64,000 nt of DNA from Botryllus schlosseri. Lineage: Eukaryota. The position numbers were made by a program, and so were the translations under genes. Under the pieces are notes generated by a model that worked only from the letters and a program-made list of their open reading frames with translations, ran no database searches and was not told where the DNA came from. Of the stretch, positions 1 to 53,974 are shown piece after piece. The stretch lies in assembly GCA_051294905.1 (NCBI GenBank), contig CM119371.1:40550001-40614000 (forward strand). Reading direction: 5' to 3'. How positions within the stretch are numbered: position 1 is the stretch's first letter; each line of letters starts with the position of its first letter.

Positions 1-268
1 AATTGTGATATGTTTGTTAGATGCATCCAATTCAACTAGAAGTGTCTAGTATCCAACACTCGTAATATCAAAAAAGTACTTGCTACGTTGTAATTCACTT
101 AACGTGTTTTGTATTGTTGTTCATTTGTAGTATTGATTGTTTTTGAACCCCCAAATAATAATTCCCGACATGAAACTAAGCCGCCGAAAGTCGTTACCAT
201 CACAAAGAAACAATTTGCACGATGTTTACTAAATGTATCCTATAGTTAGGTGTACTGGAATTATTTGT

Positions 269-271
<3 letters not shown>

Positions 272-313
<42 letters not shown>
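272..313 (+). repeat. (AC)21 microsatellite, left arm
   Basis: Read directly. Confidence 0.97.
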
Positions 314-315
<2 letters not shown>

Positions 316-2044
316 TCAGAGAAATTGGAAATTTTTCCGTTGTCATTCGCTAAAGTAAATGTCATCACAATACTCTGTCACTAAAAGACGTTACTTGGAC
401 GTGCTTGAATTCTAGACATAGTTCTGATTTACCCAACACAAGACCCAAGGACAACCCTAGTTTCAGCCGAACACAGATATCCAAAATATCACACACTTCG
501 CTATTCCTAAAGCACAAACACACGATACAAAATAATACTTGTTGTGTTGTTGCGGCATCATCACTCAACAATATCACCCTCAATACAAATGATGTTTATG
601 TGTAACATGCTATTGATTTGAACCACACCCACCTGACGGAAGAGGATTTACTCAATCTTTACAAAATGGATATTGACCAACATCACATCACCGGATTGTA
701 TCTGTTTCGCTGGATACGAGTTATGTTAGTTTAACAGTAAACAAATTTCACCCTCTTGGATTATGAACTCAATGCGTTAGCAGTCATTCAATATTTTGTT
801 TGTGTCAACTAGTTACTTGGTATGTTACTCCACAACTCTTACAAAAGTACGAAGGATATTAACATCGCACTAAGTAATTTACTTTACTCGATATTCTCGC
901 ATTACGAAACTAAAGAATGGTTGGTTAGACTCTACAAACTGTTTCGATATCACATGACCTTTATTGTCTGAATGGGTGTTCATGTGTCTTAAGAACCAAA
1001 TAGTTCAACACAACACTAGTACCAACAGAAACATCAGAGTTGTTTACACAAAAGTTTGTATGCGTGCAGTATGCGAATACCATGTGTAAGTCCAACACAA
1101 TTGTGGTATCCATCCGGTTTAGTTAACACAATTTATGACACCGAGGTCACCTCATCTTTCGTAAGACAACAAACCAACCAAGGTTTCAGGATATGTCCGT
1201 GTCATAGCAATAAATCAGCTACTCCAACAACAGAGTACATATGTTTTCTAGTTACGGTGCTTACATCTTACACACAAATCAATCTACTTTGCTAAAAAAA
1301 GTGCTGAGTCATCAAGTGATTGCCCTAACAACAAAACAGCTAAACGTACTATCATACAAAATGGCCGTTATAGTCACCAACGGTACATGGTACAAGTAAC
1401 AAGTCTCGAGAATCCAGTTATTGAAAAAACATGAAAGTGTTTCTCCTGCACCAAGTCGTTATGTTGACGAAAGCGTATATTGTAATATCATGATCGATTT
1501 GCATTCGTTGGTCACAAAATGTCACTACTCTAAATAATTATTTTTCACTCAAACACAAACGCATACTTGTCGCTAATCGTTTTCATCAAGCACGTGTTCA
1601 AGAAACCTGCTACGACATGAATTGTTATTTTTTTGTTGTTGTGTAAATAGGTAATAATTAATTTTAGTAACACTATATCAACATCATCTAGTTGCGCGAA
1701 TAGATTTACACGTGGTCTTGTGGTTTTAATCGAAGTACACAGCGCGGTCTAACGCGGAGTCATCTCTATTGTACAGCAACTCGGAAATCGAAATGCATGC
1801 ATTAACATTTAAACAGCGGTCGTGTTTCGTCACGCGAAAAATATCTTCACCACCGCGATACTCTGCACAGGGCGTGCAAATCCTTTTCACACTCGTAATA
1901 GTATACCAACGGCTACCGGTGACAACGTTTAACAATACCAACGACACTAAACATACGATACCTACCCAAGTAAAATTTCCATTTTCACCTGGAGGTCGGT
2001 CGTAACCCGAGTAGAAATACCATTATCCTTTGGAGATTTATCGT

Positions 2045-2560
2045 TTACCCAGTGTAACAAACCCCTTTTCCTTTGGTAATCTATTTTTGCCCTGGATAAC
2101 AAACCTTTTTCACTTGGAAATATATTTTTTCTCTTGGTAACAAACCTTTTTCCCTGAGCAACAAACCATTTTCACTTGCAAATATATTTTTTCCTGGGTA
2201 ACAAACCTTTTTCACTTGGAAATATATTTTTTTCCCTGGGTAACAAACCTTTTTCACTTGGAAATATATTTTTTCCCCGGGTAACAAACCTTTTTCCCTG
2301 AGCAACAAACCATTTTCACTTGCAAATATATTTTTTCCTGGGTAACAAACCTTTTTCACTTGGAAATATATTTTTTTCCCTGGGTAACAAACCTTTTTCG
2401 CTTGGAAATATATTTTTTCCTTGAGCAACAAACCATTTTCACTTGGCGGGTCGTCGTTTACCTGAGTAAAAATATCATTTTCCTTTGGAGATCTGGCGTT
2501 TACCCAGTGTAACAATACATTTTCTCTTGGCCATCTAGCTTTTCCTAGAGTAACAAAACC
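2045..2560. repeat. ~21-bp minisatellite with ~42-bp and ~144-bp higher-order units (left arm)
   Basis: Alternating monomers such as CCCTGGGTAACAAACCTTTTT, CACTTGGAAATATATTTTTTT and CCCTGAGCAACAAACCATTTT. The core is about 2085-2445 with degenerate flanks. Confidence 0.92.
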
Positions 2561-4979
2561 ATTTTCATTTTGAAATCTGACAAACACACCTGACAATTTG
2601 GTATTTGTTGTATTGACGATAGTTTGAAATAGATTACAACGAACAGTGACGGAAATATACACGGACTACCGGTTTCAGAGTATACCCCCTTCAGTCGTAT
2701 CACATCAATATCATCGGTTACCCACATACAATATCCTCTTGTACACCGAAATGCATGTTTTGGAAAATTGGACAATAGACTTCGATAGTTCTGTGATGTC
2801 CGGGTTCGTGCTTTGGATTTTCCAGAGTCAAAATGTCTGAATAAAACACCTCCTCGACGATGGTTGGTATGTGGATAACGGGGTTCGGAAGACGGTTGGA
2901 TTTATGTCACCCATCGCGATAACAATTCCAGGTCGAGTTTTCCCCCGCATGTTTACTATATTGTGTCTTTATTGGTCAATGTATGTCTCGACATTCAGTT
3001 TGAAATCGGAAACCCTGATAAAGTATGTAACCGGATCCGGATATCAACTCTGAATCGATAAACCAATGAACAATATTCAAAGTAAACATGTTACATTCCA
3101 CGAAAAAATACCATCCAGACATACGTCGCGCTTGTTTGCCCACATCAGTATACGCGTAAATGGAGGTGTGTGACATTGCATGCAATGTGTTGGTATACAA
3201 ACATCGATCCACAGACATTATCATAGCCGGTAGTTTTGATGTAGATCGAATGTCATCACACCCGATAACAATGTCATACCAATAAGCCACATTGCAATGA
3301 CTCTGAGTCCGCGCTATTACATCGATATTTCGGTGCCGTTCACTGATTTACTCGATGGTGTTATCGTGTTGTAACATTACAAGACAGTTATGGCCCTATC
3401 TCCGGACAGACCACCCAGACCAATTGGATACATCGGTCAATATCCGTCGTGTTGTCGACACCGAAGTTTTCTGCTGAGACTGCAGCGTTTGACCAAGGTG
3501 AACTATCGAATCACGGGTGCTCGAAATGATAGCGATCAGTCTTTCACTAAATCACGATACATGGATGTCACTACTCCCACATAACGACTCCAGATAAATA
3601 TCGTGTACAGTGATTCTGCAAATCTCGGACTGATACTGTGATCCAATAAGGTGTGTTTCTGTGGAATGAAGACTGCAATCGTACACCACAATAGAACACT
3701 ACCTCGCGATTTCACACGCAATCATAAAACACATCATCGTAAGGGTCCAGTTCGTCCGGTGACATTTCGAAACGGTCGTCGCCACAAGAGATCGGTATCA
3801 TTTTGAAACGACATCGTCCCAAGTCTATTGACGTCGATTCTGTTGGTCATGTCAATCCGTTTCACAATCCTCCATTTTTCAACTCCCCGCACCATAGTGT
3901 TACGACACAGACAAGAAGCGTCGGTGGAAATAATAAAACACGGAAAGCACACTTTGGTGTTATTTGACATGGATTTTACATCCAACGAACCTTACATTCG
4001 AGCGATGCATTGGAATGACGCTTGTATTATTGACGTAGAAGGAACAGAAATGTATCGGTTTATTGGTTTCGTACATATCCAACTAAAACCAGGGTATGTG
4101 ATTGTGCGTGGTTCGCATATTCGACTGTGAACGCTCTATTGATATATACAGTATAGTTCACTTTCGCCGTCGTGCGAATAACCCATGTTACGGTTCCGTG
4201 TTTGTGTGTCTGTATGTCATGCTTCAGATTGACTCAGAGTCATTGCAATGTGGCTTATTGGTATGACATTGTTATCGGGTGTGATGACATTCGATCTACA
4301 TCAAAACTACCGGCTATGATAATGTCTGTGGATCGATGTTTGTATACCAACACATTGCATGCAATGTCACACACCTCCATTTACGCGTATACTGATGTGG
4401 GCAAACAAGCGCGACGTATGTCTGGATGGTATTTTTTCGTGGAATGTAACATGTTTACTTTGAATATTGTTCATTGGTTTATCGATTCAGAGTTGATATC
4501 CGGATCCGGTTACATACTTTATCAGGGTTTCCGATTTCAAACTGAATGTCGAGACATACATTGACCAATAAAGACACAATATAGTAAACATGCGGGGGAA
4601 AACTCGACCTGGAATTGTTATCGCGATGGGTGACATAAATCCAACCGTCTTCCGAACCCCGTTATCCACATACCAACCATCGTCGAGGAGGTGTTTTATT
4701 CAGACATTTTGACTCTGGAAAATCCAAAGCACGAACCCGGACATCACAGAACTATCGAAGTCTATTGTCCAATTTTCCAAAACATGCATTTCGGTGTACA
4801 AGAGGATATTGTATGTGGGTAACCGATGATATTGATGTGATACGACTGAAGGGGGTATACTCTGAAACCGGTAGTCCGTGTATATTTCCGTCACTGTTCG
4901 TTGTAATCTATTTCAAACTATCGTCAATACAACAAATACCAAATTGTCAGGTGTGTTTGTCAGATTTCAAAATGAAAAT

Positions 4980-5495
4980 GGTTTTGTTACTCTAGGAAAA
5001 GCTAGATGGCCAAGAGAAAATGTATTGTTACACTGGGTAAACGCCAGATCTCCAAAGGAAAATGATATTTTTACTCAGGTAAACGACGACCCGCCAAGTG
5101 AAAATGGTTTGTTGCTCAAGGAAAAAATATATTTCCAAGCGAAAAAGGTTTGTTACCCAGGGAAAAAAATATATTTCCAAGTGAAAAAGGTTTGTTACCC
5201 AGGAAAAAATATATTTGCAAGTGAAAATGGTTTGTTGCTCAGGGAAAAAGGTTTGTTACCCGGGGAAAAAATATATTTCCAAGTGAAAAAGGTTTGTTAC
5301 CCAGGGAAAAAAATATATTTCCAAGTGAAAAAGGTTTGTTACCCAGGAAAAAATATATTTGCAAGTGAAAATGGTTTGTTGCTCAGGGAAAAAGGTTTGT
5401 TACCAAGAGAAAAAATATATTTCCAAGTGAAAAAGGTTTGTTATCCAGGGCAAAAATAGATTACCAAAGGAAAAGGGGTTTGTTACACTGGGTAA
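4980..5495. repeat. ~21-bp minisatellite, right-arm mirror
   Basis: Reverse complement of 2045-2560. Confidence 0.92.
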
Positions 5496-7224
5496 ACGAT
5501 AAATCTCCAAAGGATAATGGTATTTCTACTCGGGTTACGACCGACCTCCAGGTGAAAATGGAAATTTTACTTGGGTAGGTATCGTATGTTTAGTGTCGTT
5601 GGTATTGTTAAACGTTGTCACCGGTAGCCGTTGGTATACTATTACGAGTGTGAAAAGGATTTGCACGCCCTGTGCAGAGTATCGCGGTGGTGAACATATT
5701 TTTCGCGTGACGAAACACGACCGCTGTTTAAATGTTAATGCATGCATTTCGATTTCCGAGTTGCTGTACAATAGAGATGACTCCGCGTTAGACCGCGCTG
5801 TGTACTTCGATTAAAACCACAAGACCACGTGTAAATCTATTCGCGCAACTAGATGATGTTGATATAGTGTTACTAAAATTAATTATTACCTATTTACACA
5901 ACAACAAAAAAATAACAATTCATGTCGTAGCAGGTTTCTTGAACACGTGCTTGATGAAAACGATTAGCGACAAGTATGCGTTTGTGTTTGAGTGAAAAAT
6001 AATTATTTAGAGTAGTGACATTTTGTGACCAACGAATGCAAATCGATCATGATATTACAATATACGCTTTCGTCAACATAACGACTTGGTGCAGGAGAAA
6101 CACTTTCATGTTTTTTCAATAACTGGATTCTCGAGACTTGTTACTTGTACCATGTACCGTTGGTGACTATAACGGCCATTTTGTATGATAGTACGTTTAG
6201 CTGTTTTGTTGTTAGGGCAATCACTTGATGACTCAGCACTTTTTTTAGCAAAGTAGATTGATTTGTGTGTAAGATGTAAGCACCGTAACTAGAAAACATA
6301 TGTACTCTGTTGTTGGAGTAGCTGATTTATTGCTATGACACGGACATATCCTGAAACCTTGGTTGGTTTGTTGTCTTACGAAAGATGAGGTGACCTCGGT
6401 GTCATAAATTGTGTTAACTAAACCGGATGGATACCACAATTGTGCTGGACTTACACATGGTATTCGCATACTGCACGCATACAAACTTTTGTGTAAACAA
6501 CTCTGATGTTTCTGTTGGTACTAGTGTTGTGTTGAACTATTTGGTTCTTAAGACACATGAACACCCATTCAGACAATAAAGGTCATGTGATATCGAAACA
6601 GTTTGTAGAGTCTAACCAACCATTCTTTAGTTTCGTAATGCGAGAATATCGAGTAAAGTTAATTACTTAGTGCGATGTTAATATCCTTCGTACTTTTGTA
6701 AGAGTTGTGGAGTAACATACCAAGTAACTAGTTGACACAAACAAAATATTGAATGACTGCTAACGCATTGAGTTCATAATCCAAGAGGGTGAAATTTGTT
6801 TACTGTTAAACTAACATAACTCGTATCCAGCGAAACAGATACAATCCGGTGATGTGATGTTGGTCAATATCCATTTTGTAAAGATTGAGTAAATCCTCTT
6901 CCGTCAGGTGGGTGTGGTTCAAATCAATAGCATGTTACACATAAACATCATTTGTATTGAGGGTGATATTGTTGAGTGATGATGCCGCAACAACACAACA
7001 AGTATTATTTTGTATCGTGTGTTTGTGCTTTAGGAATAGCGAAGTGTGTGATATTTTGGATATCTGTGTTCGGCTGAAACTAGGGTTGTCCTTGGGTCTT
7101 GTGTTGGGTAAATCAGAACTATGTCTAGAATTCAAGCACGTCCAAGTAACGTCTTTTAGTGACAGAGTATTGTGATGACATTTACTTTAGCGAATGACAA
7201 CGGAAAAATTTCCAATTTCTCTGA

Positions 7225-7226
<2 letters not shown>

Positions 7227-7278
<52 letters not shown>
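7227..7278 (+). repeat. (GT)26 microsatellite, right-arm mirror of 272-313
   Basis: Read directly; 5 units longer than its mirror. Confidence 0.97.
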
Positions 7279-7281
<3 letters not shown>

Positions 7282-9159
7282 ACAAATAATTCCAGTACAC
7301 CTAACTATAGGATACATTTAGTAAACATCGTGCAAATTGTTTCTTTGTGATGGTAACGACTTTCGGCGGCTTAGTTTCATGTCGGGAATTATTATTTGGG
7401 GGTTCAAAAACAATCAATACTACAAATGAACAACAATACAAAACACGTTAAGTGAATTACAACGTAGTAAGTACTTTTTTGATATTACGAGTGTTGGATA
7501 CTAGACACTTCTAGTTGAATTGGATGCATCTAACAATCATATCACAATTTACTTTTACAATAATCAAAGTCTTAGAGTGTATAACCTCGCGATATTTTAC
7601 ATTTAGCACGCACAATGGGGAGTTACTGAAATGATTAAGAATTGATCGCTAGCTTCGAACGGTACTCGATACTCAAAGTGATATTTTCACACTCTGTAAA
7701 GTGCATATGTTTCAATTCTCTGTCGCAAATTCCGACAGTAACGACATTGATGTTAAATCCTCACCCGTGGTTATTGTAAGTGAATCCTAAACATCGCAAC
7801 AGTCGGTATGGAAATCGAACGCGTGCGTACTTTTAGATAGGTGACACTAACAAGTTTATTACACCGTGAAATACTCTGAAACGTCGATTCGTGATTGTGT
7901 TAGCTATATTCATCTTCCATATCTGTGGACACAAAGATATCTTGACTTTGGTTACAACTCACTCGAAACGAATTGTTGCGGGTAATCTAGAAAAGCACAA
8001 GTCGAAGACGAATGATTTGATTTCAATAAACTAAAAAATTCCTTTTGTTTTGATGTTGGATTTAATGCAATTTGTATGACTATACCGAATTCGAATCCGA
8101 AAGTGCAATGTTACTTTAGTAGAAAAATTGGATGACTCGCATTTTGATATTGATAGATGTGTAGAGTAATATTACTAGTTTATAAAATCTCGGTAATGTT
8201 TTTTCGTCATGTCTGTGATCAACAAATATGTGATCAAGTCTTACCATTCGATATTAACTTTCGCAGTCGGTGTAATTTGTTGAAGTAACAATACCGACGA
8301 GTTCAATAATATTCCCCATCGATGCATTCGAATAATCCGTCAGCTGCAAGCGGATTTAAAACTTGATGGTGTTTCGCGGTTAACTCAAGTCAGTGGTCGT
8401 GTTTGTGTTGATTTCAGGAATGATCATGACGAGTTGCCTGGGTAGATTAGTTAATGTGGTTGTAACTACGACCGTACAGAGTTGCTGACACCCCAATATC
8501 TTTTACGCTGTAATATACGGATTTATTTGTGATAAATTAATTCTCAGTTATTGTTCAGACATTCAAATCTCGTATACTCAAAATATAATATGTCCAAGTC
8601 AAATCGTATATGCACCGATTAGTAAATACTTTGTCTTCAGAATAGTAACAACCTTTACAATTGAATAAAAAGATAGAGCATACGAATACAACCAGGATGA
8701 ATTAATTCAAATTTGTGAGTTGTAATGATATATTCAAGTAAGGGAAACTAGATTTTTAACAATTGTTAATGTTGTGAATAATTCTTTTGAGTTTGAAATG
8801 TGGCTGGATCAAAGTTGGTAGTCATGTTTGTCAAACCTATTTCACTTCACGCAATGTCAAAGTCCAAATATTTCATTCTGGATTATTTGGATTTACCTTT
8901 AGTACATCCCGCGAATGGATTTAAAGTTGGCAAATTACCAAAATGATTGAATAATATCGGGTCAGAGATAGTTGGTATTGATTCTATAAGTGTTAAAACA
9001 GCGGCGTGGAATGTGTGAATGATCCGATGAGGGTGAATGTTGGTGTCAGTAATATTCAGGTTACGTTCGATTCAACAGATCGCGTTAATAGGATTTGAGT
9101 TGGGTCGAATCAATACATTCAAATACGATTCAACTTGATTTGTGTAGTGAGTTACACTG

Positions 9160-9795
9160 ATGACTCCCACTTTATCAAACGATATGACATCGAACAGCGT
9201 CAACACTATGCAAGTCGGAGCAACTTCAAATTTTCACGTCGGCGTCAAATTCGTCTCATCACCCAAAAGAGGTGGCGTTAGCCAATATCTCAAAGGTATA
9301 TTCATCGATGGCAATAACGAAGAGATATCTTTCACGTGTTTCAATCGTGATTTGTTCGGGAACATTGAGAAAGCATTCACCAAACGAAAAAAACTCATGG
9401 TCAAATCCGGTTGGGTTCAAATTGATAAATTTACTGGAAAACCCACTGTATTACTTGTTCGGGCTTCGTCAGTAACTCTACATGGAAAATCGAGACATAC
9501 GACTGAAGAATACCCATTATTGACCTGTGAATCGGTATACGGAAATAAAGATGAATACGTCTCGATCGCCGCTACTTGTGTTTCTCGAGAGGAGAAGATG
9601 GTTAATTCTGGTGCCGGAAAGGAGTTGAAATTATACAGTTTTACATTGAAGGATGATACTGGCGAGGTGGTTTTGGATCAATGGAACAAAGCCTCGCTCG
9701 TACCCGGGAAGAAATATCAACTCACTCGTGTTAAAAACTGTGTCGGCAGCTTGAAAATCGATCCGTTAACTAGACTTGTTGAATTGAAAGAATAG
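9160..9795 (+). CDS. Tandem OB-fold, RPA/SSB-like single-stranded DNA-binding protein (211 aa)
   Basis: Intact intronless ORF. The C-terminal half (VSIAATCVSREEKMV...LYSFTLKDDTGEVVLDQWN...LVPGKKYQLTRVK) fits the RPA70/archaeal SSB OB pattern (DxTG-x-V-x-L-x-x-W). The N-terminal half (YLKGIFIDGNNEEISFTCFN) fits a second OB fold. Judged by eye. Confidence 0.75.
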   Translation: MTPTLSNDMTSNSVNTMQVGATSNFHVGVKFVSSPKRGGVSQYLKGIFIDGNNEEISFTCFNRDLFGNIEKAFTKRKKLMVKSGWVQIDKFTGKPTVLLVRASSVTLHGKSRHTTEEYPLLTCESVYGNKDEYVSIAATCVSREEKMVNSGAGKELKLYSFTLKDDTGEVVLDQWNKASLVPGKKYQLTRVKNCVGSLKIDPLTRLVELKE

Positions 9796-10383
9796 TTTGC
9801 ATATTTGTATACCACAATACAATATTTCGCGTAATATGTATGACCTATGTGATTCGACAACTGGATTAGCGCGGTGTTGTTCTACTGGTCGAGGTGTGAA
9901 AATTGTGCTATCGCGATGAAGTTGCGACTGTGAACAGCAGACTATTCTGTAGGCGCGAAACAGCGAATAAGCCGAAAGTATTATTTAGGTAGCAATCAAT
10001 AGCGAGGAAAGAGAGAACACGATCGGTCATTTGACACGACTAAACTACGACATCATATATCATAATTTACGATCAAACTATTTCGCACTGACTGGTCTAG
10101 TGTAATATTCGATAGTAGCGGCTGGACGAGAAATAATTCAGTGCGCAGGTCATTCGGAATATAGGTCGCACGCACACTGCGTAATCCTCAGAACCGATCG
10201 CGTTTCCGTTTGCGCGGTTATTGTTGGTGACTATTCAACACCGCGCGAGAGATGTCTGAAAGTGTGACAGGCGAATCGCCGCCACCGCCTATAGCAAAAA
10301 AGGCGAGTCACGACCACGAGTTTTCACGATATACACATTAACAAAGATTCATTCACATGACTATTTACTTGATACATATTCAA

Positions 10384-10595
10384 CACCGGTCGAGAGATGC
10401 ATATACCGAAAAGGGTCACCGGTTCAAGACGAGTTTCGAGGCACCGGTCGAGTGATCGCTATACCGAAAAGGGTCACCGGTTCAAGACGAGTTTTCGCGG
10501 CACCGGTCGAGAGATCCCTATACTCATAAGGCACCGGTCGGGTGGAAGGGGGGTCTGAAAGGGTCACCGGTTCAGGACGAGTTTTCGCGGCACCT
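10384..10595. repeat. Subterminal ~58-bp direct repeats of element A with 7 CACCGGT motifs
   Basis: Unit CACCGGTCGAGAGAT..TATACCGAAAAGGGTCACCGGTTCAAGACGAGTTT(T)CG starts at 10384, 10442 and 10501, followed by a partial copy. Confidence 0.9.
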
Positions 10596-10650
10596 CACCA
10601 CCCCGCCCATAAGAGACAATGGCACACCACGACCGATCTATATAACTACT

Positions 10651-35885: not shown

Positions 35886-35954
35886 TATGTAATTAAGTTT
35901 CAACACTTTTACAATGATTCGTCTTGCTTCCTATAACATCCCACTCGAGAAAAT

Positions 35955-37215: not shown

Positions 37216-37240
37216 GTTTAGTTGTATAGGCATAAAAAAC

Positions 37241-42352: not shown

Positions 42353-42452
42353 NNNNNNNNNNNNNNNNNNNNNNNNNNNNNNNNNNNNNNNNNNNNNNNN
42401 NNNNNNNNNNNNNNNNNNNNNNNNNNNNNNNNNNNNNNNNNNNNNNNNNNNN
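42353..42452. other. 100-N scaffold gap joining two overlapping contigs
   Basis: Sequence after the gap restarts at the equivalent of 33503 (offset about 8946-8950). The ~2 kb before the gap accumulates single-base indels relative to the other copies. Confidence 0.9.
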
Positions 42453-45400
42453 GTTTGTAACTTGTGCAAGTACAGGAAAATCATGGTTCTTGAACCGTGC
42501 TCAATGAATAATAGAGCATTTTTTGCTATTTTTCATTGCCATAAGTCATTCTGAAATAGCAGAATTACCGTGTTAAACATTGAATTCCACCTTGAAAGTT
42601 GGTACGCGGTTATAGGACATTATAAAAATGCACCATACCAAATCCCATCAGACATTTCATGATGGAACTACTTTAAAACTAACGCGGCTCTACATCGACT
42701 TTTTGCGTACATCTGTTTGCGGGAGCGTATAGCACGTACCCATACATAGTCAACTTTAATAACGGAATTACCATGCATTGAATCCCAACTCTAAACTTGA
42801 TACGTAGTTGTAGGGCATTATGGCTATGCACCATGCTAAATTTCATCACACATCTAATGATGGAACACCTTTGAAACTATCGCAGTCGCATACCGACTTT
42901 TACGCATATCTGTTTTTCGTGAACATAGCATATACCCATACATAGTCAATTTTAATAACAGAATTAGCATGCTAAACATTAAATTCTCACCTTGAACGTT
43001 GGTACGCAGTTGTAGGACATAATAACAATGCACCATACCAAATTTCGTCAGACATTTCATGATGTAACACCTTCAAAACCAACGCAGTTCTATACAGACT
43101 TTTAACTAAATCTGTTTTTCCGTAGCGTAGCACGTACCTAAACATAGTCAACTTTATTAACGGAATTACCATGTTAATATTCGACTCCCTACCTTGAAAC
43201 TCGGTACGCAGTTGTAAGACATTATGACAATGCACCATGTCAAATTTTGCAAGTACTTTATCTTTACACGACGTTTTTTGTAAAATGAATACTAATTTTA
43301 TTGAAAAAATAAAAAATAAAAAGAGCGAAAAATTACATTATATCCCGGAACGCAACAAGAAAAATCGTATGAATTTGTAAACTACTTGTTCATGACATAA
43401 TAATAATTCTACTTGTACACTTTTTCACATTTTATAACACTTTAAGTAATACTTAACAGTTTCAGTTTAAATAAAAGACGGAATATAAACTAATCGAAAA
43501 ATTCGGTAACCAATTTCGCGTAGGCTATGCATGCATACAAATGAGGAAAGTTACATCAACGCGTGTTAAAGTAGCTGTATCGAGTTATCGAATGATTTTC
43601 TCCTTACATCAAAACAACTAGAATGTATAACTAAATTAAAAAACGTATCTAAATGAGCTCCAGGGCATTGTGATTATGCTGCATACCAAATTTCATCACA
43701 CATTTCATGATGGAACAACTTTAAAACTAACGCAGTTCTATAGCAACTTTTGCCTAAATCTGTTTTCGGTAGCGTGTACATATACATAGTCAGATTTAAT
43801 AACAGAATTATCATGCTAATATGTGACTCCTCACCTTGAAACTTGGTACGTAGTTGTAGGACATTGTGATTATGCAGCATACCAAATTTCCTCACGCATT
43901 TAATAATGGAACAACTTTAAAACTAACGCGGTTCTACATCGACTTTTTGCGTACATCTGTTTTGCGTGGGGGCGTATAGCACGTACCTATACATAGTTAA
44001 CTTTAACAACGGAATTACCATGCTTAACATTGAATCCCAACTCGAAACTTGATACGTAGTTGTAGAACATTATGGCAATGCACCATGCTAAATTTCATCA
44101 CACATCTAATGATGGAACACCTTTAAAACTAACGCAGTCGAATACCGACTTTTACGCATATCTGTTTTGCGTGAACATAGCATATACCTATACATAGTCA
44201 ATTTTAATAGCAGAATTACCGTGTTAAACATTGAATTCCCACCTTGAAAGTTGGTACGCGGTTATAGGAGATTATAACAATGCACCATACCAAATCCCAT
44301 CACACATTTCATGATGGAACAACTTTAAAACTAACGCGGCTCTACATCGACTTTTTGCGTACATCTGTTTTGTGGGAGCGTATAGCACGTAGCCTACCCA
44401 TACATAGCCAACTTTAATAACGGAATTACCATGCTTAACATTGAATCCCAACTCGAAACTTGATACGTAGTTATAGGACATTATGGCAATTCACCATGCT
44501 AAATTTCATCACACATCTAATGATGGAACACCTTTGAAACTATCGCAGTCGAATACCAACTTTTACGCATATCTGTTTTTCGTGAACATAGCATATACCC
44601 ATACATAGTCAATTTTAATAACAGAATTAGCATGCTAAACATTAAATTCTCACCTTGAACGTTGATACGCGGTTGTAGGACATAATAACAATGCACCATA
44701 CCAAATTTCGTCAGACATTTCATGATGTAACACCTTTAAAACTAACGCAGTTCTATACCAACTTCGCGTGAATCTGTTTGCGGGAGCGTAGCACGTACCT
44801 ATGCGTGATCAACTTTAGTGATGGAATTACATATGTAATTAAGTTTCAACACTTTTACAATGATTCGTCTTGCTTCCTATAACATCCCACTCGAGAAAAT
44901 GCGTCGTAGGATATAGATGAAACTAGCACAACTCATCAAGACCGCTGAAAACAGTACATTTCAACATTTAGTAGCAGTAAATTTCTAGTAAAGTACAAGA
45001 CGTGATGATTTCCGAGTGAGTTAAAAAGTAAGTATTGCAGGTATAGTTTACCTGAAAACCGAATACTCTGAAATAGAAGTAGATGCAGTGTAAATAGTTA
45101 ATCACTTGATTAAGTTTAGTGCAAGCAGATAAAACCTATACTTGAGTAGTACAAAATGCACGAGTACTTCGATATCGCCTCCCTCCGCGTAATAAGTGTC
45201 TACGGTTTAAGACTGCTTTTACCGATACTCGTCGGTTTCAGTTTTAGATAGAATTCGGAAACCAAATAATTTCATAAACATAAGCTAATTTAATGAATTT
45301 ACTCGAATGTACTATGCCGCGCTGATAAGATTAATTATAATATACTTATCATGTTACAGCGATTTTTCTAGCGTAGAAAATCTTTAAAATGTAGTAAGCA

Positions 45401-48400
45401 GGCCAAATGAAGATATTCGTTGAGCTGAAGAAACATAAAAAATACTCTAGACTACTTTATCGGTACTTTACAGTTACAGTTTTAGATAAAATTTGTCCCT
45501 TTCACCTATAATTACAACTCCTCGCTATCTAAACATGTTTAGAATATATTATTTGCGATGATACGAACCCGTGAAGTACTCAAGTTGCTTTTCGTAGGAT
45601 ATAGATGAAACTGACAACACTCACCAAGACCAGTGATCCACTGAAAAAAGTAAATTGTAGCAGTAAAGTCCCACTAAAGTACAAGAAGTAATGATTTCCC
45701 AGTTAGTTAAAAAGTAAGTATTGAGGTATAGTTTGGTCGAAAAAGCGAAAAACTCTGAAATAGAAGTAGATGCAGTGTAAATAGGTAATCACTTCATTAA
45801 GTATAGCGCAAGCAGGCCAAACCTATACTTGAGTACTGCAAATGTACAAGTACTTCGCTATGTTCTCCTTCCACGTAAAAAGTGACTAGGTTTTAGAGTA
45901 CTTTATCGGTACTCGACAGTTTCAGTGTTAGATAAAATTTGGTAAGACTTTAAATTTTAAAGTAGTTTGAGCTTACGTTTGTATCACCTTGACAAGTAAC
46001 ATTATCAGACATGAAAATGATACTATCACCGAATATAGAAGTTAACACGCGTCAATGTGTTTCGGAATTCACGAGAAATTGCTTACTAAGAGAAGTATAT
46101 TGTTGTATACACAATAGTGGAGAGAATATTTAAAATGTAGTAAGCAGGCCGATGGATATTCGTTTAGTTGTATAGGCATAAAAAACATTCCCGCGCGCTC
46201 TTAAACAAAACACTTCCTAACCCTACCACCTAATACTAAGACGCGCGCGGGAATGTTTTTTATGCCTATACAACTAAACGAATATCCATCGGCCTGCTTA
46301 CTACATTTTAAATATTCTCTCCACTATTGTGTATACAACAATATACTTCTCTTAGTAAGCAATTTCTCGTGAATTCCGAAACACATTGACGCGTGTTAAC
46401 TTCTATATTCGGTGATAGTATCATTTTCATGTCTGATAATGTTACTTGTCAAGGTGATACAAACGTAAGCTCAAACTACTTTAAAATTTAAAGTCTTACC
46501 AAATTTTATCTAACACTGAAACTGTCGAGTACCGATAAAGTACTCTAAAACCTAGTCACTTTTTACGTGGAAGGAGAACATAGCGAAGTACTTGTACATT
46601 TGCAGTACTCAAGTATAGGTTTGGCCTGCTTGCGCTATACTTAATGAAGTGATTACCTATTTACACTGCATCTACTTCTATTTCAGAGTTTTTCGCTTTT
46701 TCGACCAAACTATACCTCAATACTTACTTTTTAACTAACTGGGAAATCATTACTTCTTGTACTTTAGTGGGACTTTACTGCTACAATTTACTTTTTTCAG
46801 TGGATCACTGGTCTTGGTGAGTGTTGTCAGTTTCATCTATATCCTACGAAAAGCAACTTGAGTACTTCACGGGTTCGTATCATCGCAAATAATATATTCT
46901 AAACATGTTTAGATAGCGAGGAGTTGTAATTATAGGTGAAAGGGACAAATTTTATCTAAAACTGTAACTGTAAAGTACCGATAAAGTAGTCTAGAGTATT
47001 TTTTATGTTTCTTCAGCTCAACGAATATCTTCATTTGGCCTGCTTACTACATTTTAAAGATTTTCTACGCTAGAAAAATCGCTGTAACATGATAAGTATA
47101 TTATAATTAATCTTATCAGCGCGGCATAGTACATTCGAGTAAATTCATTAAATTAGCTTATGTTTATGAAATTATTTGGTTTCCGAATTCTATCTAAAAC
47201 TGAAACCGACGAGTATCGGTAAAAGCAGTCTTAAACCGTAGACACTTATTACGCGGAGGGAGGCGATATCGAAGTACTCGTGCATTTTGTACTACTCAAG
47301 TATAGGTTTTATCTGCTTGCACTAAACTTAATCAAGTGATTAACTATTTACACTGCATCTACTTCTATTTCAGAGTATTCGGTTTTCAGGTAAACTATAC
47401 CTGCAATACTTACTTTTTAACTCACTCGGAAATCATCACGTCTTGTACTTTACTAGAAATTTACTGCTACTAAATGTTGAAATGTACTGTTTTCAGCGGT
47501 CTTGATGAGTTGTGCTAGTTTCATCTATATCCTACGACGCATTTTCTCGAGTGGGATGTTATAGGAAGCAAGACGAATCATTGTAAAAGTGTTGAAACTT
47601 AATTACATATGTAATTCCATCACTAAAGTTGATCACGCATAGGTACGTGCTACGCTCCCGCAAACAGATTCACGCGAAGTTGGTATAGAACTGCGTTAGT
47701 TTTAAAGGTGTTACATCATGAAATGTCTGACGAAATTTGGTATGGTGCATTGTTATTATGTCCTACAACCGCGTATCAACGTTCAAGGTGAGAATTTAAT
47801 GTTTAGCATGCTAATTCTGTTATTAAAATTGACTATGTATGGGTATATGCTATGTTCACGAAAAACAGATATGCGTAAAAGTTGGTATTCGACTGCGATA
47901 GTTTCAAAGGTGTTCCATCATTAGATGTGTGATGAAATTTAGCATGGTGAATTGCCATAATGTCCTATAACTACGTATCAAGTTTCGAGTTGGGATTCAA
48001 TGTTAAGCATGGTAATTCCGTTATTAAAGTTGGCTATGTATGGGTAGGCTACGTGCTATACGCTCCCACAAAACAGATGTACGCAAAAAGTCGATGTAGA
48101 GCCGCGTTAGTTTTAAAGTTGTTCCATCATGAAATGTGTGATGGGATTTGGTATGGTGCATTGTTATAATCTCCTATAACCGCGTACCAACTTTCAAGGT
48201 GGGAATTCAATGTTTAACACGGTAATTCTGCTATTAAAATTGACTATGTATAGGTATATGCTATGTTCACGCAAAACAGATATGCGTAAAAGTCGGTATT
48301 CGACTGCGTTAGTTTTAAAGGTGTTCCATCATTAGATGTGTGATGAAATTTAGCATGGTGCATTGCCATAATGTTCTACAACTACGTATCAAGTTTCGAG

Positions 48401-50516
48401 TTGGGATTCAATGTTAAGCATGGTAATTCCGTTGTTAAAGTTAACTATGTATAGGTACGTGCTATACGCCCCCACGCAAAACAGATGTACGCAAAAAGTC
48501 GATGTAGAACCGCGTTAGTTTTAAAGTTGTTCCATTATTAAATGCGTGAGGAAATTTGGTATGCTGCATAATCACAATGTCCTACAACTACGTACCAAGT
48601 TTCAAGGTGAGGAGTCACATATTAGCATGATAATTCTGTTATTAAATCTGACTATGTATATGTACACGCTACCGAAAACAGATTTAGGCAAAAGTTGCTA
48701 TAGAACTGCGTTAGTTTTAAAGTTGTTCCATCATGAAATGTGTGATGAAATTTGGTATGCAGCATAATCACAATGCCCTGGAGCTCATTTAGATACGTTT
48801 TTTAATTTAGTTATACATTCTAGTTGTTTTGATGTAAGGAGAAAATCATTCGATAACTCGATACAGCTACTTTAACACGCGTTGATGTAACTTTCCTCAT
48901 TTGTATGCATGCATAGCCTACGCGAAATTGGTTACCGAATTTTTCGATTAGTTTATATTCCGTCTTTTATTTAAAACTGAAACTGTTAAGTATTACTTAA
49001 AGTGTTATAAAATGTGAAAAAGTGTACAAGTAGAATTATTATTATGTCATGAACAAGTAGTTTACAAATTCATACGATTTTTCTTGTTGCGTTCCGGGAT
49101 ATAATGTAATTTTTCGCTCTTTTTTATTTTTTATTTTTTCAATAAAATTAGTATTCATTTTACAAAAAACGTCGTGTAAAGATAAAGTACTTGCAAAATT
49201 TGACATGGTGCATTGTCATAATGTCTTACAACTGCGTACCGAGTTTCAAGGTAGGGAGTCGAATATTAACATGGTAATTCCGTTAATAAAGTTGACTATG
49301 TTTAGGTACGTGCTACGCTACGGAAAAACAGATTTAGTTAAAAGTCTGTATAGAACTGCGTTGGTTTTGAAGGTGTTACATCATGAAATGTCTGACGAAA
49401 TTTGGTATGGTGCATTGTTATTATGTCCTACAACTGCGTACCAACGTTCAAGGTGAGAATTTAATGTTTAGCATGCTAATTCTGTTATTAAAATTGACTA
49501 TGTATGGGTATATGCTATGTTCACGAAAAACAGATATGCGTAAAAGTCGGTATGCGACTGCGATAGTTTCAAAGGTGTTCCATCATTAGATGTGTGATGA
49601 AATTTAGCATGGTGCATAGCCATAATGCCCTACAACTACGTATCAAGTTTAGAGTTGGGATTCAATGCATGGTAATTCCGTTATTAAAGTTGACTATGTA
49701 TGGGTACGTGCTATACGCTCCCGCAAAACAGATGTACGCAAAAAGTCGATGTAGAGCCGCGTTAGTTTTAAAGTAGTTCCATCATGAAATGTCTGATGGG
49801 ATTTGGTATGGTGCATTTTTATAATGTCCTATAACCGCGTACCAACTTTCAAGGTGGGAATTCAATGTTTAACACGGTAATTCTGCTATTTCAGAATGAC
49901 TTATGGCAATGAAAAATAGCAAAAAATGCTCTATTATTCATTGAGCACGGTTCAAGAACCATGATTTTCCTGTACTTGCACAAGTTACAAACGCGCTATC
50001 GTAAATTAGTATATACTACTAAAATGCAAACTCGGACGAAATCATGAATGCGTAGAACTTACCTTAAACATATATTGTGTACAAACAACTTTTTACAAGA
50101 ACTATAAAATTCCACTCCAAGCGCTGCGACTTAGCTCAAGCGAACAAGTATTTCGGACTTTAGGAGTCAAATTGTCTTTCTTATGGTAAATTAACATAGG
50201 GAACGAAATTTAGTATGGTGCATTTTCATATTATCCTACAACTGCGTACCAAGATTCAGGGTGGGAATTTGATTATTAGCATGATAATTCCGTTATGAAA
50301 GCTTACTATGTATAGGTACGTGCTACGCTACCGAAAAACAGATTTATGCTAAAGTCTGTATCACCTTACATCAGTTGGTTCAATGTATGTACCGGGTTGT
50401 GAAAACTGTCGCTGTTTGACTATGTGTCACAATCAATACTAAATACGAGAATTCGTTACTCGTCGAAACGGCGCAGTCAGACATCGTTAACAGCGATTCC
50501 GTGTATGGCAATCTTG

Positions 50517-51728
50517 TGTTTCAGCTTAAAACTCAACGCATTAGCATGCCTAATTTATAACCACAGCGAGATTCGAGTAATAACCGACCCTAGATAGTCT
50601 ACCTTTAACAGAAAACTTGCATATACATTCGAATTTGTGCGACTTCGGCTATATTGTCGGTTAACATTATAGCCGTGCACAGAACTCATTATTACGTTAT
50701 TAGGTATTTAAATGATGCGATATAGGGAAAATCTCGGTGTAATTCAATCTGTGCCCATTATCCATGTATGCTCCAATGCGTTTTGCGGCTTTAGTATAGG
50801 TATTGGATCTAATATATTCTATAAAACATCTACGTTGCTATATATTATATATCTTAATCCTAAGTGCATTGCTGCATTGAAAAATTATAGCTATATGCGG
50901 TACGCTGTCGATTTTTCAGTATACTCAAGAAATGAAATAGCCCACCTTCAGTGTTGCGTAATCTGCCTTGTCACTATATGCTTGTTCCGGGCTTGCTTGC
51001 GGTACTAGTCTTCTTGGCTGCGCGAAATAGGATGTTTCAGCTTAAAACTCAACGCATTAGCATGCCTAATTTATAACCACAGCGAGATTCGAGTAATAAC
51101 CGAGCCTAGATAGTCTACCTTTAACAGAAAACTTGCATATACATTCGAATTTGTGCGACTTCGGCTATATTGTCGGTTAACATTATAGCCGTGCACAGAA
51201 CTCATTATTACGTTATTAGGTATTTAAATGATGCGATATAGGGGAAATCTCGGTGTAATTCAATCTGCCCCCATTATCCATGTATGCTCCAATGCGTTTT
51301 GCGGCTTTAGTATAGGTATTGGATCTAATATATTCTATAAAACATGTACGTTGCTATATATTTATCTTAATCCGAAGTGCATTGCTGCATCGAAAAATTA
51401 TAGCTATATGCGGTACGCTGTCGATTTTTCAATATTAGTCAAGAAATGAAATAGCCCACCTTCAGTGTTGCGTAATCTGCCTTGTCACTATATGCTTGTT
51501 CCGGGCTTGCTTGCGGTACTAGTCTTCTTGGCTGCGCGAAATAGGATGTTTCAGCTTAAAACTCAACGCATTAGCATGCCTAATTTATAACCACAGCGAG
51601 ATTCGAGTAATAACCGAGCCTAGATAGTCTACCTTTAACAGAAAACTTGCATATACATTCGAATTTGTGCGACTTCGGCTATATTGTCGGTTAACATTAT
51701 AGCCACGCACAGAACTCATTATTACGTT
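50517..51728. repeat. ~516-bp tandem repeat, about 2.3 copies (right arm of B)
   Basis: The mirror coordinate sum shifts from 83495 to 82977 (518 bp) across the array. Confidence 0.93.
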
Positions 51729-53974
51729 AGCTATTGGAGAAATCTCAACGTAAATCAATCTGCGTTCACAATTCGCGTAAGCTAATGCTGCATCGAGAAA
51801 TTATAGCTACATTTAGTTTAAATTGGCACGAAAATACATTGATCTTACCTTATGCCTGCGATGCCTGCATCCCTGCGCACATGGCAATACTTGTAATAGA
51901 AATGTGAAGTTTTCAGAATGCGAATTGCTTTACGTCGGAACTAAACATTCTAATTCGTAACGCCAGCGCGGCGTTTTCTTGGAAACGCAACTTTATTTAG
52001 AATGTTCTAATTCACTTTGTCGATGTGGCGCAACTTTTTTGGAATCGTAAGCAACTGTATTCGTGGCACATTTACACGCGTCAATTTCTTGGAATAGTAT
52101 TCAGCAATATGCGCGTGAGCTTTCGCGTCATTGTAGACATTTATGGTGGCGATATCTGCATTATCAAGTTGCATTCGCAGAATTCCTCAAAATCATTGAC
52201 TAATTAATGATGACACAGATGTTATAAGTACACACGAACATAGTCTTACATTTATGTGTTATTACTCGAAAAAGGTGTTGTCTCGGAATTTAAGAGAGAA
52301 TCGGCGGTTATATTCTCAAAACAGCTCAATACGGCTAGTTTGCTCAATAGCCTGGTGGTGAGCGATGTGAAATTATACCCAACCAAACCAGGTTCGATTC
52401 TAGCTAAGGTAAGTTTTGACGTGGCAATGAGTGACATAGGTGCAGCAATCGACATCGCGCGGGTTGATGCTGTGCAGCGTATAGATGCGGCAATCAATGC
52501 GATGATGATGTGGCAATGGATGATGTGGCACTATAGACGTGGCAATGGGTGTGCTATAGGTGCGGCAATGGGTGGATGATGTGGCAATGTAGGCGTGGCA
52601 ATTAAGGCGACGTGGCGAAATTTGATTGGCCTGCAACAAACGATTCAACCCACACTACTTACGTGGTTAAAACTTCCATTTATAATCCATAAATAATCGA
52701 AATTATTTTCGTTGCTGTTGGCCGTGGGTTGCCATAGCCTGGGGACAAAATCAGCCGCTTCCCTCCCATTTTTAACTCGTACATTGTAAGTCCAGACGTG
52801 CCACTACAACTCATCAGAGTTGGAGGAAAGCTACAATTCGATAATATGAATATATTTTTGAATATAGGAACATCACAAATATAACTAAACTATATTCACT
52901 AATTCTACAATTTCCCATAAAGCTCTGTGGCCAACTCTGACCCAGCAGTGAGCCATGGCCCACCCTTTGAGAACCCCTGGTCAAGTATTTACATAGTTTG
53001 CGATGTTTTCAGAGCGTAATCACATGTTTAACATTACCGTTGCATATTACGGATTCCGAATCACTGTACATTCTCCGCTGCAAACTTTCGATTTGCGACA
53101 TAAATAATTTGCAACACCATCAACCCACCCACTTCCACGTAAAACCTTCCGAAATCAACGGAAAAAAAATAAACCATATCGCTCGTTGATTAACGCAGGC
53201 GTATGTTTTGTTGACTTACTTCGTAGTGGGGATGGTGTGAACCTCTGAACCGTTCAAGTTCGTGTGAACCCGAACCTTTCTGAAAGGTTCTGTGTGAACG
53301 CGAACGTGAACCTCGTGACGTGACGTGACGTGACGTATTATTGCTAATTCTAACCCCACATTTCATTGAAGAGATAGCCTATATTAATGTTCACGAAACC
53401 TAGCGAATACTCGGACCACATATTGCTACAATGCTGAAATAGATATTGACATTTTAAACGTCGCCAAATGTATCAAGTGAGGCAATCAGATGATATAATA
53501 ATCCCGTAAAATCAATATCTTTGGTCGCTTTGCCAACAATTCCGACGAGGACTTGCAAGGGATAAGTTATACAGCATTAGCCAACACCCTAATCGCACGG
53601 ATTTGGTTTTCATGATACAATAAACATATGCTGGTGAAGTCATATTTTGTGATACGATTGTTGATATACAATGTTCTTTCCAATTCTCTACTAGTTGCTG
53701 ACGATTACCCCTGACGAGTGTCAGCCGAAAATATTCGGGTTCATTTCAATATGAATATACTATTCAATTGTACTATGTGTAGATAAAATATAAATACCCC
53801 AATTGTACGCATACAGACAACGAATCTACCTAAGACACGCCAGGATCGTTTTTTATAAGCACATCACTGAAATAATTAAAAATGGGCTGGCCAATCTGAA
53901 ATCTCACTCGTGATCCAAATTATGTCAATCCCGTTGCAGCTATCTCGCTGTGATATTAAGTATTTACCTTGGAT

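Follow-up and report, generated by a model that had tools for sequence, protein, structure and literature searches.

Protein-primed replication and the formation of virions are presumed for Mavericks (Polintons), but to our knowledge almost nothing about them has been established experimentally and their non-autonomous partners have barely been described. Foldback transposons such as FB of Drosophila, Galileo and Tetris belong to cut-and-paste superfamilies (P, MULE and others) with different TSD lengths and end motifs. In adenovirus, the protein-primed relative among the viruses with which snap-back or copy-back genomes can be compared, Daniell is said to have described long inverted repeats in the DNA of incomplete particles in 1976. 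Mavericks are described in one preprint as 13-25 kb long, bounded by TIRs of 100-1500 bp and by TSDs of 5-8 bp (bioRxiv 10.1101/2023.08.22.554363), and in butterfly polintons the TIRs are reported to reach ~2 kb, far more than is usual, and to hold polinton genes, which are therefore present at either end (bioRxiv 10.1101/2025.02.07.637071). A copy-back or snap-back defective viral genome is defined as highly symmetric and palindromic, dependent on a helper and with the replication signals of the terminus retained at either end (PMC13506859), and left-end DNA is reported to be enriched in adenovirus incomplete particles (PMC12090768).

The window (the whole stretch of 64,000 nt analysed, positions 40,550,001 to 40,614,000 of contig CM119371.1 in the Botryllus schlosseri assembly GCA_051294905.1) contains two elements, A and B, which lie 19.7 kb apart and share no DNA. 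Our main reading, to which we give a probability of about 70%, is that each represents an abundant lineage of its own, unrelated to the other, and that both lineages are non-autonomous derivatives of Mavericks/Polintons which are palindromic over the whole element (foldback-type satellites) and moved in trans. Element A has the following parts:

1..10650, portion of A within the window (from self-comparison, reading of the ends and terminus coordinates)
1..3309, inner 3,309 nt of the left arm, the outer 3,100 nt lying upstream of the window
3310..4230, unique centre, 921 bp
3807..4130, forward strand, candidate ORF of 107 codons in the centre (genome match search)
4231..10650, right arm
4961..5486, tandem repeat array of 41/42 bp, with a mirror array at ~2020-2566
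9160..9795, forward strand, ORF of 211 aa in the right arm, with a mirror copy upstream of the window (G000:C1:40547758-40548390)
10625..10650, forward strand, right terminus, closing ...CTATATAACTACT (terminus match search in the genome)
10651..10656, TSD AATGGT, with its partner copy at L031:6894-6899

The total length of A is 13,751 bp, with its start 3,100 bp upstream of the window (L031:6900; self-comparison of L031 together with the window). Its ends are AGTAGT and ACTACT, and the right one (...AACTACT at 10650) forms the sharp boundary that the first-pass annotation, made from the sequence of the window, had described. The same annotation had read arms of at least 3.3 kb; with the upstream part added they measure 6,421 nt each, and arm differs from arm by 6 mismatches and one 10-nt gap (1..3309 aligns with 4231-7549 over 3,319 positions, with 5 mismatches and a single gap of 10 nt). 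The parts of element B are:

30312..30317, TSD TACGTG, left copy
30318..52659, B as assembled, 22,342 bp, opening AGTAGTGTGGG and closing CCCACACTACT
30318..37252, left arm, 6,935 nt
31248..33095, satellite of ~516-bp units in the left arm (families D9, D10 and D13)
33605..35871, satellites of 202/411-bp units in the arm
37253..37296, forward strand, axis loop of 44 nt, asymmetric, with GC-rich stems on either side
37297..42352, right arm in the first contig's reading, up to the gap
42353..42452, scaffold gap of 100 N inside B
42453..51267, second reading of B DNA 33503-42351 (unmerged overlap), with the loop repeated at 46199-46242
46243..52659, right arm in the second contig's reading
52660..52665, TSD TACGTG, right copy, a perfect 6-bp match to the left one

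The AGTAGT...ACTACT ends, the perfect TSD and the palindromic structure over the full length, here round the 44-nt loop, had all been correctly recognised for B. Its left arm differs from 46243-51729 by 2 mismatches in 5,487 nt, while 37297..42352 aligns to the left arm with 28 small gaps and no mismatch. The two copies of the direct duplication of 8.85 kb across the 100 N align over 8,849 positions with 32 gap openings and no mismatch, and represent a contig overlap that was left unmerged. Once it is collapsed, the 22,342 bp of B in the assembly shrink to a probable true length of ~13,427 bp, in agreement with the size of ~13.5 kb originally proposed. Between the arms there is a difference of one satellite unit of ~518 bp, as the mirror array of the ~516-bp satellite (~50517-51846) is one unit shorter and the arm offset is 518 bp. 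Runs of 100 N are also present in both of the two further double-axis loci examined, so that all three such loci, B included, are false duplications at 100-N gaps, and since the assembly is broken within the palindrome at each of them, the structure of any single locus has to be taken with caution.

Genome searches with the ends of A and B showed that both belong to large families, the end matches numbering in the hundreds; the reading of either element as single-copy fails. The terminal 26-mer of A has 139 forward and 138 reverse matches with up to 3 mismatches (control 0/0), the terminal 300 bp of B have at least 60 matches (40 scored of 666 candidates), and the axis of B is found at no fewer than 38 other loci with 98-100% identity (40 of 908 candidates scored). 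Perfect and mutually different 6-bp TSDs were found in 13/13 palindromic or end-sharing elements (A, B, a second A-type copy at L052/L053 and 10 further B-type elements), which bears out the expectation of a multi-copy family with distinct TSDs. Left ends read AGTAGT across this set except for one that is shortened to AGTAGG; one right end is mutated to ACTTCT, and the number of AGT units is variable at one C14 end. Six of the 10 B-type elements fetched are whole-element palindromes (11.6-17.1 kb), and a palindrome of 14,041 bp makes up the A-type copy at C1:32.71 Mb. Inverted repeats of 5-6 kb with >99.9% identity occur at many loci, which excludes chance as the source of the palindromes. The loop and stems of B are conserved in C14, C3, C7 (flipped), C13 and C11a; because the same centre sequence recurs at many loci, the architecture is inherited and not remade in each copy, that is, the palindromic design including the axis sequence is passed from copy to copy.

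Coding elements of the same genome share these ends, confirming the assignment of the termini to Polintons/Mavericks. The outer 2.66 kb of B (30318-32978) matches the left end of the coding element C8b at 98.9%, and C8b also carries the ~516-bp satellite, while the outer ~1.5 kb of A (the end and the OB gene of its subterminal region) matches the left end of a Maverick with pPolB and integrase; in A as in B, both ends are the same helper end. One Maverick of 15,271 bp (L054/L057) has a TIR of 668 nt, pPolB (PF03175, 32.4 bits vs. a cut-off of 25.8), an rve+chromo integrase and an ATPase, and its TSD copies agree at 5/6 positions. A genome search with its 23-nt end gave 89 forward and 83 reverse matches; among them, with at most 1 mismatch, are pairs that enclose palindromic elements (C4:12240690-12254873 and C12:26390501-26404687), as a cross-reading with the matches of the arm gene and of the centre ORF shows. 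The palindromic elements coexist with dozens of apparently intact Mavericks whose ends are the same or nearly so, and 36 of the 41 scored pPolB matches in the genome are open. The coding relatives that share these ends carry the rve integrase, an A32-type ATPase and, by a weak DJR match, a jelly-roll capsid protein. In all three B-type coding elements read, pPolB was not found apart from a 37-aa remnant, and none of the 41 listed pPolB loci falls in a B-type pair.

Reading of the ORFs of both elements gave no pPolB, rve integrase, A32-type ATPase, protease or jelly-roll capsid ORF in A or B, so the earlier claim of missing Polinton genes stands for these five, but A is still gene-bearing, with one 211-aa ORF per arm. 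Being without replication and integration genes, A and B would have to move in trans, and copy number, TSDs and shared ends point to mobilisation by helper proteins. The 211-aa gene probably encodes an OB-fold DNA-binding protein (the OB-fold signals are weak); its frame is open in all 150 scored genome matches, and it differs from the copy in a pPolB-bearing Maverick at 5/633 nt (99.2% nucleotide identity). The 150 scored matches include 48 divergent pairs with a median spacing of 11.4 kb, and pPolB lies less than 9 kb away for 22/54 unpaired copies vs. 1/96 paired ones. The 107-codon ORF of the centre matched no Pfam family; its 150 scored matches (of 1,182 candidates) occur one per locus, 105 of them are stop-free, and pN/pS is 0.86 for a single aligned pair. 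A-type elements carry intact genes of their own, with a putative OB-fold gene in either arm.

When compared with the described systems, A and B resemble Mavericks in their AG...CT ends, which consist of short units in tandem, the 6-bp TSD, the 13-25 kb size class and the ends that they have in common with elements of the same genome encoding pPolB, rve integrase, A32-type ATPase and jelly-roll capsid protein. Unlike Mavericks, they have no polymerase, integrase or virion genes, and their interior consists of satellites, with one or two small genes added in A. Moreover, a Maverick has a TIR of ~0.1-1.5 kb round a large unique coding core, whereas here the ‘TIR’ is the whole element, with arms of 6.4-6.9 kb and a unique part of only 921 bp or 44 nt. 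Like the butterfly polintons with genes in both TIRs, A bears a helper-type gene in either arm, but butterfly polintons remain fully coding with a large unique middle, while the inverted repeat makes up 93-99.7% of A and B. The likeness to FB, Galileo and Tetris lies in very long inverted arms with tandem subrepeats, little or no centre, non-autonomous copies and the link to satellite DNA, as these are described for foldback transposons (PMC3573991, PMC4079207); the subrepeats are the 516-, 202- and 411-bp satellites in B and the 41/42-bp array in A, and the centres measure 44 nt (B) and 921 bp (A). However, those transposons are mostly a few kb long, whereas the ends, TSD and helpers of A and B are those of Mavericks and their length is that of the helper. 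With snap-back defective genomes A and B share the symmetric palindrome with Maverick ends at both termini and the presumed dependence on a helper, but defective genomes arise de novo, have variable junctions and are short-lived, while A and B are old, diversified and germline-integrated, with a fixed axis and, in A, a conserved gene of their own.

The two arms of an element change together. Inside one element, arm and arm differ by 0/1200, 1/1154, 0/1183 and 0/1034 substitutions, whereas element differs from element by 11 to 101 substitutions per ~1.1 kb; over whole arms the mismatch rate inside an element is 0.05-0.30%. Overall, arms differ by 0.04-0.3% inside an element and by 1-8% between elements, and copies that diverge by up to 8-20% retain the palindromic design. 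Arm-to-arm gene conversion in the chromosome could also keep the arms identical, and assembly polishing that mixes reads from both arms could inflate their identity.

Under the main reading, a helper protein-priming polymerase and integrase would act in trans on A and B. During strand-displacement replication the self-complementary strand would snap back, and a strand leaving the axis could be copied from its own opposite arm, or mismatches in the hairpin could be repaired, either of which would renew arm identity in every round; the hairpin would also offer a ready double-stranded origin for each displaced strand. An analogy is offered by a strand-displacing family-B polymerase whose products of 3'-end switching are mostly inverted chimeras (PMC1855051). 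The elements measure ~13.4-14 kb and the helper 15.3 kb, a size relation that may reflect packaging in helper capsids, although this is a correlation only. Taken to its full extent, this leads to a tentative and rather unlikely proposal, namely that A and B are satellite viruses of animal polintoviruses: heritable one-hairpin snap-back replicons whose arms are re-copied from each other in every protein-primed round and which are packaged in helper capsids (this would explain the sizes), with the A lineage bringing its own single-strand-binding protein. If true, they would be the DNA counterpart of copy-back defective-interfering genomes turned into a stable, evolving lineage.

It is also doubtful, though conceivable, that A and B are foldback transposons which need only the integrase to move (cut or copy and paste) and do not pass through protein-primed replication. 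Their arms would then be kept alike, as those of further large palindromes in genomes are, by gene conversion between arms in the chromosome or by mismatch repair of the hairpin. Inverted arms that are long and filled with satellites, on either side of a small centre, are presented as a hallmark of foldback elements in several superfamilies (PMC3573991, PMC4079207), integrase suffices for a 6-bp TSD, and pPolB is missing from the B-type coding elements. Against this, hundreds of copies with always symmetric lineage divergence argue for a homogenisation closely tied to propagation, and the A-type satellites keep a probable single-strand-binding gene almost identical to the helper copy. In addition, the AGT repeats conserved at both ends fit protein-primed slide-back initiation, for which Kapitonov and Jurka reportedly provided the background in 2006.

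The first-pass annotation had proposed instead that one Polinton end was merely copied back on itself, so that every element would be a defective genome newly formed by copy-back (snap-back), through a Polinton polymerase that turned round on one helper end, with the product integrated afterwards. The matches of the outer parts of A and B to left ends of coding elements and the presence of one helper end at both termini agree with this, and strand-displacing family-B polymerase is reported to make chiefly inverted chimeras, through 3'-end switching (PMC1855051). Yet colinearity with a coding element is limited to the outermost 1.5 kb of A and 2.66 kb of B, and nothing in the four coding elements compared corresponds to the 4-5 kb of each arm that lie further inward. 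Independent events would give differing turn-round points, whereas the same axis (44-nt loop with stems, or 921-bp centre with ORF) is found at dozens to hundreds of loci (the B axis at the 38 or more loci given above, the A-centre ORF at the 150 scored), and the design is kept despite the divergence of copies. As the origin of each individual copy, copy-back is therefore improbable and largely refuted; it survives only as an event that may have founded each lineage.

That the palindromes are an assembly artefact (chimeric long reads or scaffolding) is highly improbable, for although the doubling of B and the 100-N runs of the two other double-axis loci are of this kind, there are N-free single palindromes with unique flanks and perfect locus-specific TSDs (13/13), symmetric substitutions, which no assembler makes, distinguish copies at different loci, and four separate studies on this organism contain the family words.

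Palindromic elements of this kind break assemblies, and given the false duplications at the double-axis loci, repeat content and local structure are mis-stated in such genomes. For the Mavericks themselves, a large family of hairpin hitch-hikers that match them in ends and size, and whose arms evolve in lock-step, is a natural read-out of the cis signals needed, which come to a few dozen terminal bases per end, and it suggests that fold-back strands are replication intermediates. The hitch-hikers also offer a DNA-level parallel to defective-interfering genomes, and could restrain or exploit their helpers.

Inverted-repeat search and self-BLAST delimited two large palindromic blocks in the window (1-7549 and 30313-52664), and an ORF scan showed that long ORFs are nearly absent across it. 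The window was placed at C1:40550001-40614000 in a eukaryotic genome assembly of 495 Mb and 219 contigs. Once 10 kb of upstream sequence (L031) was added, the first block, element A, resolved into two arms of 6,421 nt each around a unique centre of 921 bp (3310-4230). The left end of A reads AGTAGTTATATAG... at L031:6900 and its right end ...CTATATAACTACT, the last base being window position 10650. Because both ends could be read and AATGGT adjoins A on each flank, A is a complete insertion of 13,751 bp; its arms differ from one another by 6 substitutions and one 10-nt gap, a mismatch rate of 0.09%.

Element B begins with AGTAGTGTGGG... at 30318, ends with ...CCCACACTACT at 52659 and has TACGTG on both flanks; an ORF check found no credible ORF in it. 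As assembled, it carries an identical 44-nt loop twice (37253-37296 and 46199-46242) and, by self-BLAST, an 8.85-kb direct duplication, with exactly 100 N between the duplicates (42353-42452). The two copies show 0 substitutions and 32 small gaps over 8,849 positions, and the right arm of the first contig matches the left arm with 0 mismatches and 28 small gaps. The duplication looks like two contig ends that read the same DNA, joined by a scaffold gap and left unmerged, and a biological dimer made by rolling-hairpin or second copy-back replication is ruled out by a junction that consists of 100 N and a mismatch-free duplicated overlap. A 100-N run also separates the axes at two more loci where a pair of axes lies a few kb apart, so that one was present in 3/3 double-axis loci examined, B included; further double-axis loci are at C13:14.01 Mb and C11:23.47 Mb. 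Palindromic elements hold gaps of this kind, flanked on either side by the same DNA, at

window 42353-42452, 100-N gap in B
L055:667-766, 100-N gap
L056:1087-1186, 100-N gap

and the false duplications at them make the elements of this assembly appear longer, and its repeat content higher, than they are. Once collapsed, B comes to about 13,427 bp, with 6,935 nt in the left arm, 44 nt in the loop and about 6,448 nt in the right arm. This size agrees with the roughly 13.5 kb of the first-pass annotation. The arms of B differ by one satellite unit of about 518 bp and by 2 substitutions over 5,487 nt.

PacBio hairpin adapters measure about 45 nt. An adapter artefact at the axis is nevertheless ruled out, as the 44-nt loop is conserved and diverging genomic sequence at many loci. 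The loop includes CCTAACCCTACC, about 1.7 units of the telomere-type repeat CCCTAA, a stretch that is partly kept in diverged copies and was noticed after the fact.

A and B are members of mobile families. With the terminal 300 bp of B as query there were 666 candidates, of which 40 were scored, giving 60 matches; many of the matches are inverted pairs 4.5-20 kb apart. Ten elements with B ends were read: six palindromic, three coding with short TIRs, and one 4.6-kb remnant. The six, which lack ORFs of at least 150 aa and are palindromic over the whole element, are named here by contig:

C14, B-type palindrome, 15.2 kb
C3, B-type palindrome, 17.1 kb
C7, B-type palindrome, 15.4 kb
C13, B-type palindrome, 12.3 kb
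C11a, B-type palindrome, 16.8 kb
C1b, B-type palindrome, 11.6 kb, with a 1.6-kb centre

The 6-bp TSDs are perfect in all 11 elements (B and the ten others), each being different. The 44-nt loop and GC-rich stems of B are kept in C14, C3, C13 and C11a and flipped in C7, and the axis region of B is found at 98-100% identity at no fewer than 38 other loci (40 scored of 908 candidates). The left end of C14 is AGTAGG (L034:75) and its right end ...CCCTACTACT (L035:7531); the two differ by one AGT unit, as slide-back initiation would be expected to give.

For A, the terminal 26-mer matched 139 times forward and 138 times in reverse with at most 3 mismatches (control 0), and 24 of the 42 A-end pairs among the matches listed are spaced 12.9-14.7 kb, with a median of 13,958 bp. 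A palindrome of 14,041 bp at C1:32.71 Mb (L052/L053) has ends identical to those of A, the TSD GGCGAG and arms with 5 mismatches in 6,562 nt (0.08%), while its arm interior is about 80% like that of A, in patches only. With the arm of A as query, more inverted pairs at 94-97% were found on five other contigs (15 scored of 5,234 candidates). The A family is abundant in four sequencing runs of this organism, each from a different study, compared with 3100-11200 through short contigs (listed pieces of 70-155 nt), a comparison that bears on abundance and not on spanning molecules, junctions or empty sites. Of the sampled A-arm words, 36-49% are also present in runs assigned to other organisms or to seawater or marine metagenomes (X5-X14, X17-X19), and the family, or one closely related to it, may or may not be present beyond the species sequenced. 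Around A and B, in G000:C1:40.35-40.82 Mb, there are a B-type end at 40350131 and a centre-ORF match at 40657155, with arm-gene matches on C1 at 40806074 and 40819283; the contig is 41.84 Mb long, all of these are at most about 1.5 Mb from its end, and the cluster may be a local pile-up.

B-type coding members encode an integrase (rve plus chromo), a Pox_A32-type ATPase, a Bcl-2-family protein and a BIR protein, with a weak match for the double jelly roll. The left 2.66 kb of one of them (C8b), the 516-bp satellite included, matches B 30318-32978 at 98.9%. pPolB is absent from all three B-type coding copies (L032/L033, L044/L045 and L048-L050), where a 37-aa C-terminal remnant stands beside the ATPase gene, and these Mavericks may themselves rely on the polymerase of another element. 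Two of their genes are

L049:6493-7170 and L033:3178-3861, minus strand, Bcl-2-family gene (Pfam E 1e-20)
L049:8679-9311 and L033:5356-5988, plus strand, BIR/IAP-domain gene (E 1e-15 to 1e-17)

Both lie near one end, at the position of the polymerase in the A-type coding element, and resemble anti-apoptosis cargo carried by a virus-like element. The Maverick copy on C4 has received a BEL/Pao-type LTR retrotransposon ORF (L048:6768-9998, minus strand, into L049:2-1066) with the domains DUF1759, Integrase_H2C2 and DUF5641.

The only long ORF of A is the arm gene at 9160-9795, which encodes 211 aa and has a mirror copy in the left arm. It gave 150 scored matches of 348 candidates, with open frames in 150/150; 96 of these make up 48 divergent pairs, whose members are a median 11.4 kb apart, and the remaining 54 are unpaired. 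One unpaired copy belongs to a 15,271-bp Maverick (L054/L057) with a TIR of 668 nt (99.1%), ends AGTAGTATATACGATCGGTCGCG and flanks TGAGTC and TGCGTC, which carries a 1,138-aa pPolB (PF03175, 32.4 bits against a cut-off of 25.8) together with an ATPase and an rve plus chromo integrase. The other genes of this Maverick share 28-54% identity with their homologues in the B-type coding elements. For its pPolB, 388 candidates yielded 41 scored matches (92-100% identity), of which 36 contain no stop, and 22 of the 54 unpaired arm-gene copies, against 1 of the 96 paired ones, are at most 9 kb from a scored pPolB locus; unpaired copies therefore mark helpers, that is, coding Mavericks with shared ends, and paired copies mark palindromes. 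The 23-nt end of the helper matched 89 times forward and 83 times in reverse (control 0), and pairs of it with one mismatch enclose palindromes with paired arm genes at C4:12240690-12254873 and C12:26390501-26404687. Two findings that would have spoken against the first-pass view of A and B are thus not made: Polintons of both the B and the A type share the termini, and neither element is single-copy.

A whole-genome search with the PF03175 profile returned no match, which is a false negative since 41 pPolB loci match, at least one above the cut-off. Searches by Pfam family can overlook real genes in this genome, as here with dozens of open pPolB genes; the PF04665 profile gave 13 ATPase loci over the whole genome, none in the elements studied.

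The arm gene differs from the helper copy at 5/633 nt, and the whole A-helper alignment of 1,134 nt, which includes non-coding DNA from the gene to the end, is 94.5% identical; the greater closeness of the gene suggests constraint or recent exchange. For its 211-aa product no firm family was obtained from Pfam, PDB sequences, HMMER or the protein database: the Pfam OB-fold match is weak (E 0.089), no PDB entry matches by sequence, exhaustive HMMER returned one full-length relative (214 aa, 26-27% identity) and one weak repeat protein, 5.8 billion proteins hold a single 97% relative, and the single-sequence structure model is unusable (pLDDT 35). Its language-model neighbours are OB-fold/replication-factor-A clusters (0.92-0.94), and with moderate confidence it is probably a two-OB single-strand-binding protein. 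The ORF is absent from the L052/L053 subfamily. The candidate centre ORF of A (107 codons, 3807-4130) had 1,182 candidates and matched at the 150 loci scored, a single time at each; 105 of these matches are stop-free, and pN/pS is 0.86 in the one pair aligned. It has no Pfam family and one near-identical database protein.

Elsewhere in the window, 58729-62114 and 62194-63695 hold direct repeats (58780-59079 and 61815-62114, 99%) around a 640-aa ORF (59876-61798, minus strand) with no Pfam match, adjoined by an inverted repeat of 713 nt (90%). This may be another repeat element.

In the 1.0-1.2 kb beside the axis, the arms of B, C14, C7 and C11a differ from each other by 0, 1, 0 and 0 substitutions within an element, whereas the same arms differ by 11 to 101 between elements; whole-arm mismatch is 0.05-0.08% in five elements and 0.30% in C1b. 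Each difference between lineages is thus on both arms, and the arms change in lock-step. The axis is inherited. The arms may be re-made from one another during propagation; the alternative, and the main rival, is fast chromosomal gene conversion between arms. Assembly polishing could exaggerate the identity within elements, but symmetric differences between loci cannot come from it.

The polymerase and integrase of the helper would act in trans on the palindromic elements, and a displaced or nascent strand would snap back because the whole strand is self-complementary; a 3' end beyond the axis could then be extended with the other arm of the same strand as template, giving identical arms and re-creating a duplex origin. 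A strand-displacing family-B polymerase yields mostly inverted chimeras by such 3'-end extension, according to the accessible text of PMC1855051. As a general account of the copies, the copy-back origin proposed in the first-pass annotation is largely refuted, the axis being inherited; all that is left to it is a possible role in founding the lineages and in renewing the arms. The near-constant length of about 13.4-14 kb, against 15.3 kb in the helper, suggests a packaging constraint, as a correlation only.

Both elements have Maverick ends at both termini and 6-bp TSDs, have lost all enzyme genes and coexist with many intact helpers, and by their ends and TSDs they classify as non-autonomous Maverick/Polinton derivatives. 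Unlike Mavericks proper, they have neither the genes nor the TIRs by which that family is recognised: the published TIR range is 100-1500 bp in the available part of one preprint (bioRxiv 10.1101/2023.08.22.554363), and gene-bearing TIRs of about 2 kb are described for butterfly polintons in the portion consulted of another (bioRxiv 10.1101/2025.02.07.637071). Their architecture is like that of foldback transposons and of snap-back defective genomes, as the latter appear in the excerpted text of PMC13506859. No description of whole-element palindromic Mavericks was found in the literature searched, which did not extend to Repbase reports and many subscription journals. A two-OB single-strand-binding protein in the arms of A, if it is one, would fit strand-displacement replication. 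A and B are real and unusual and not categorically new: they are foldback-type satellites of Mavericks.
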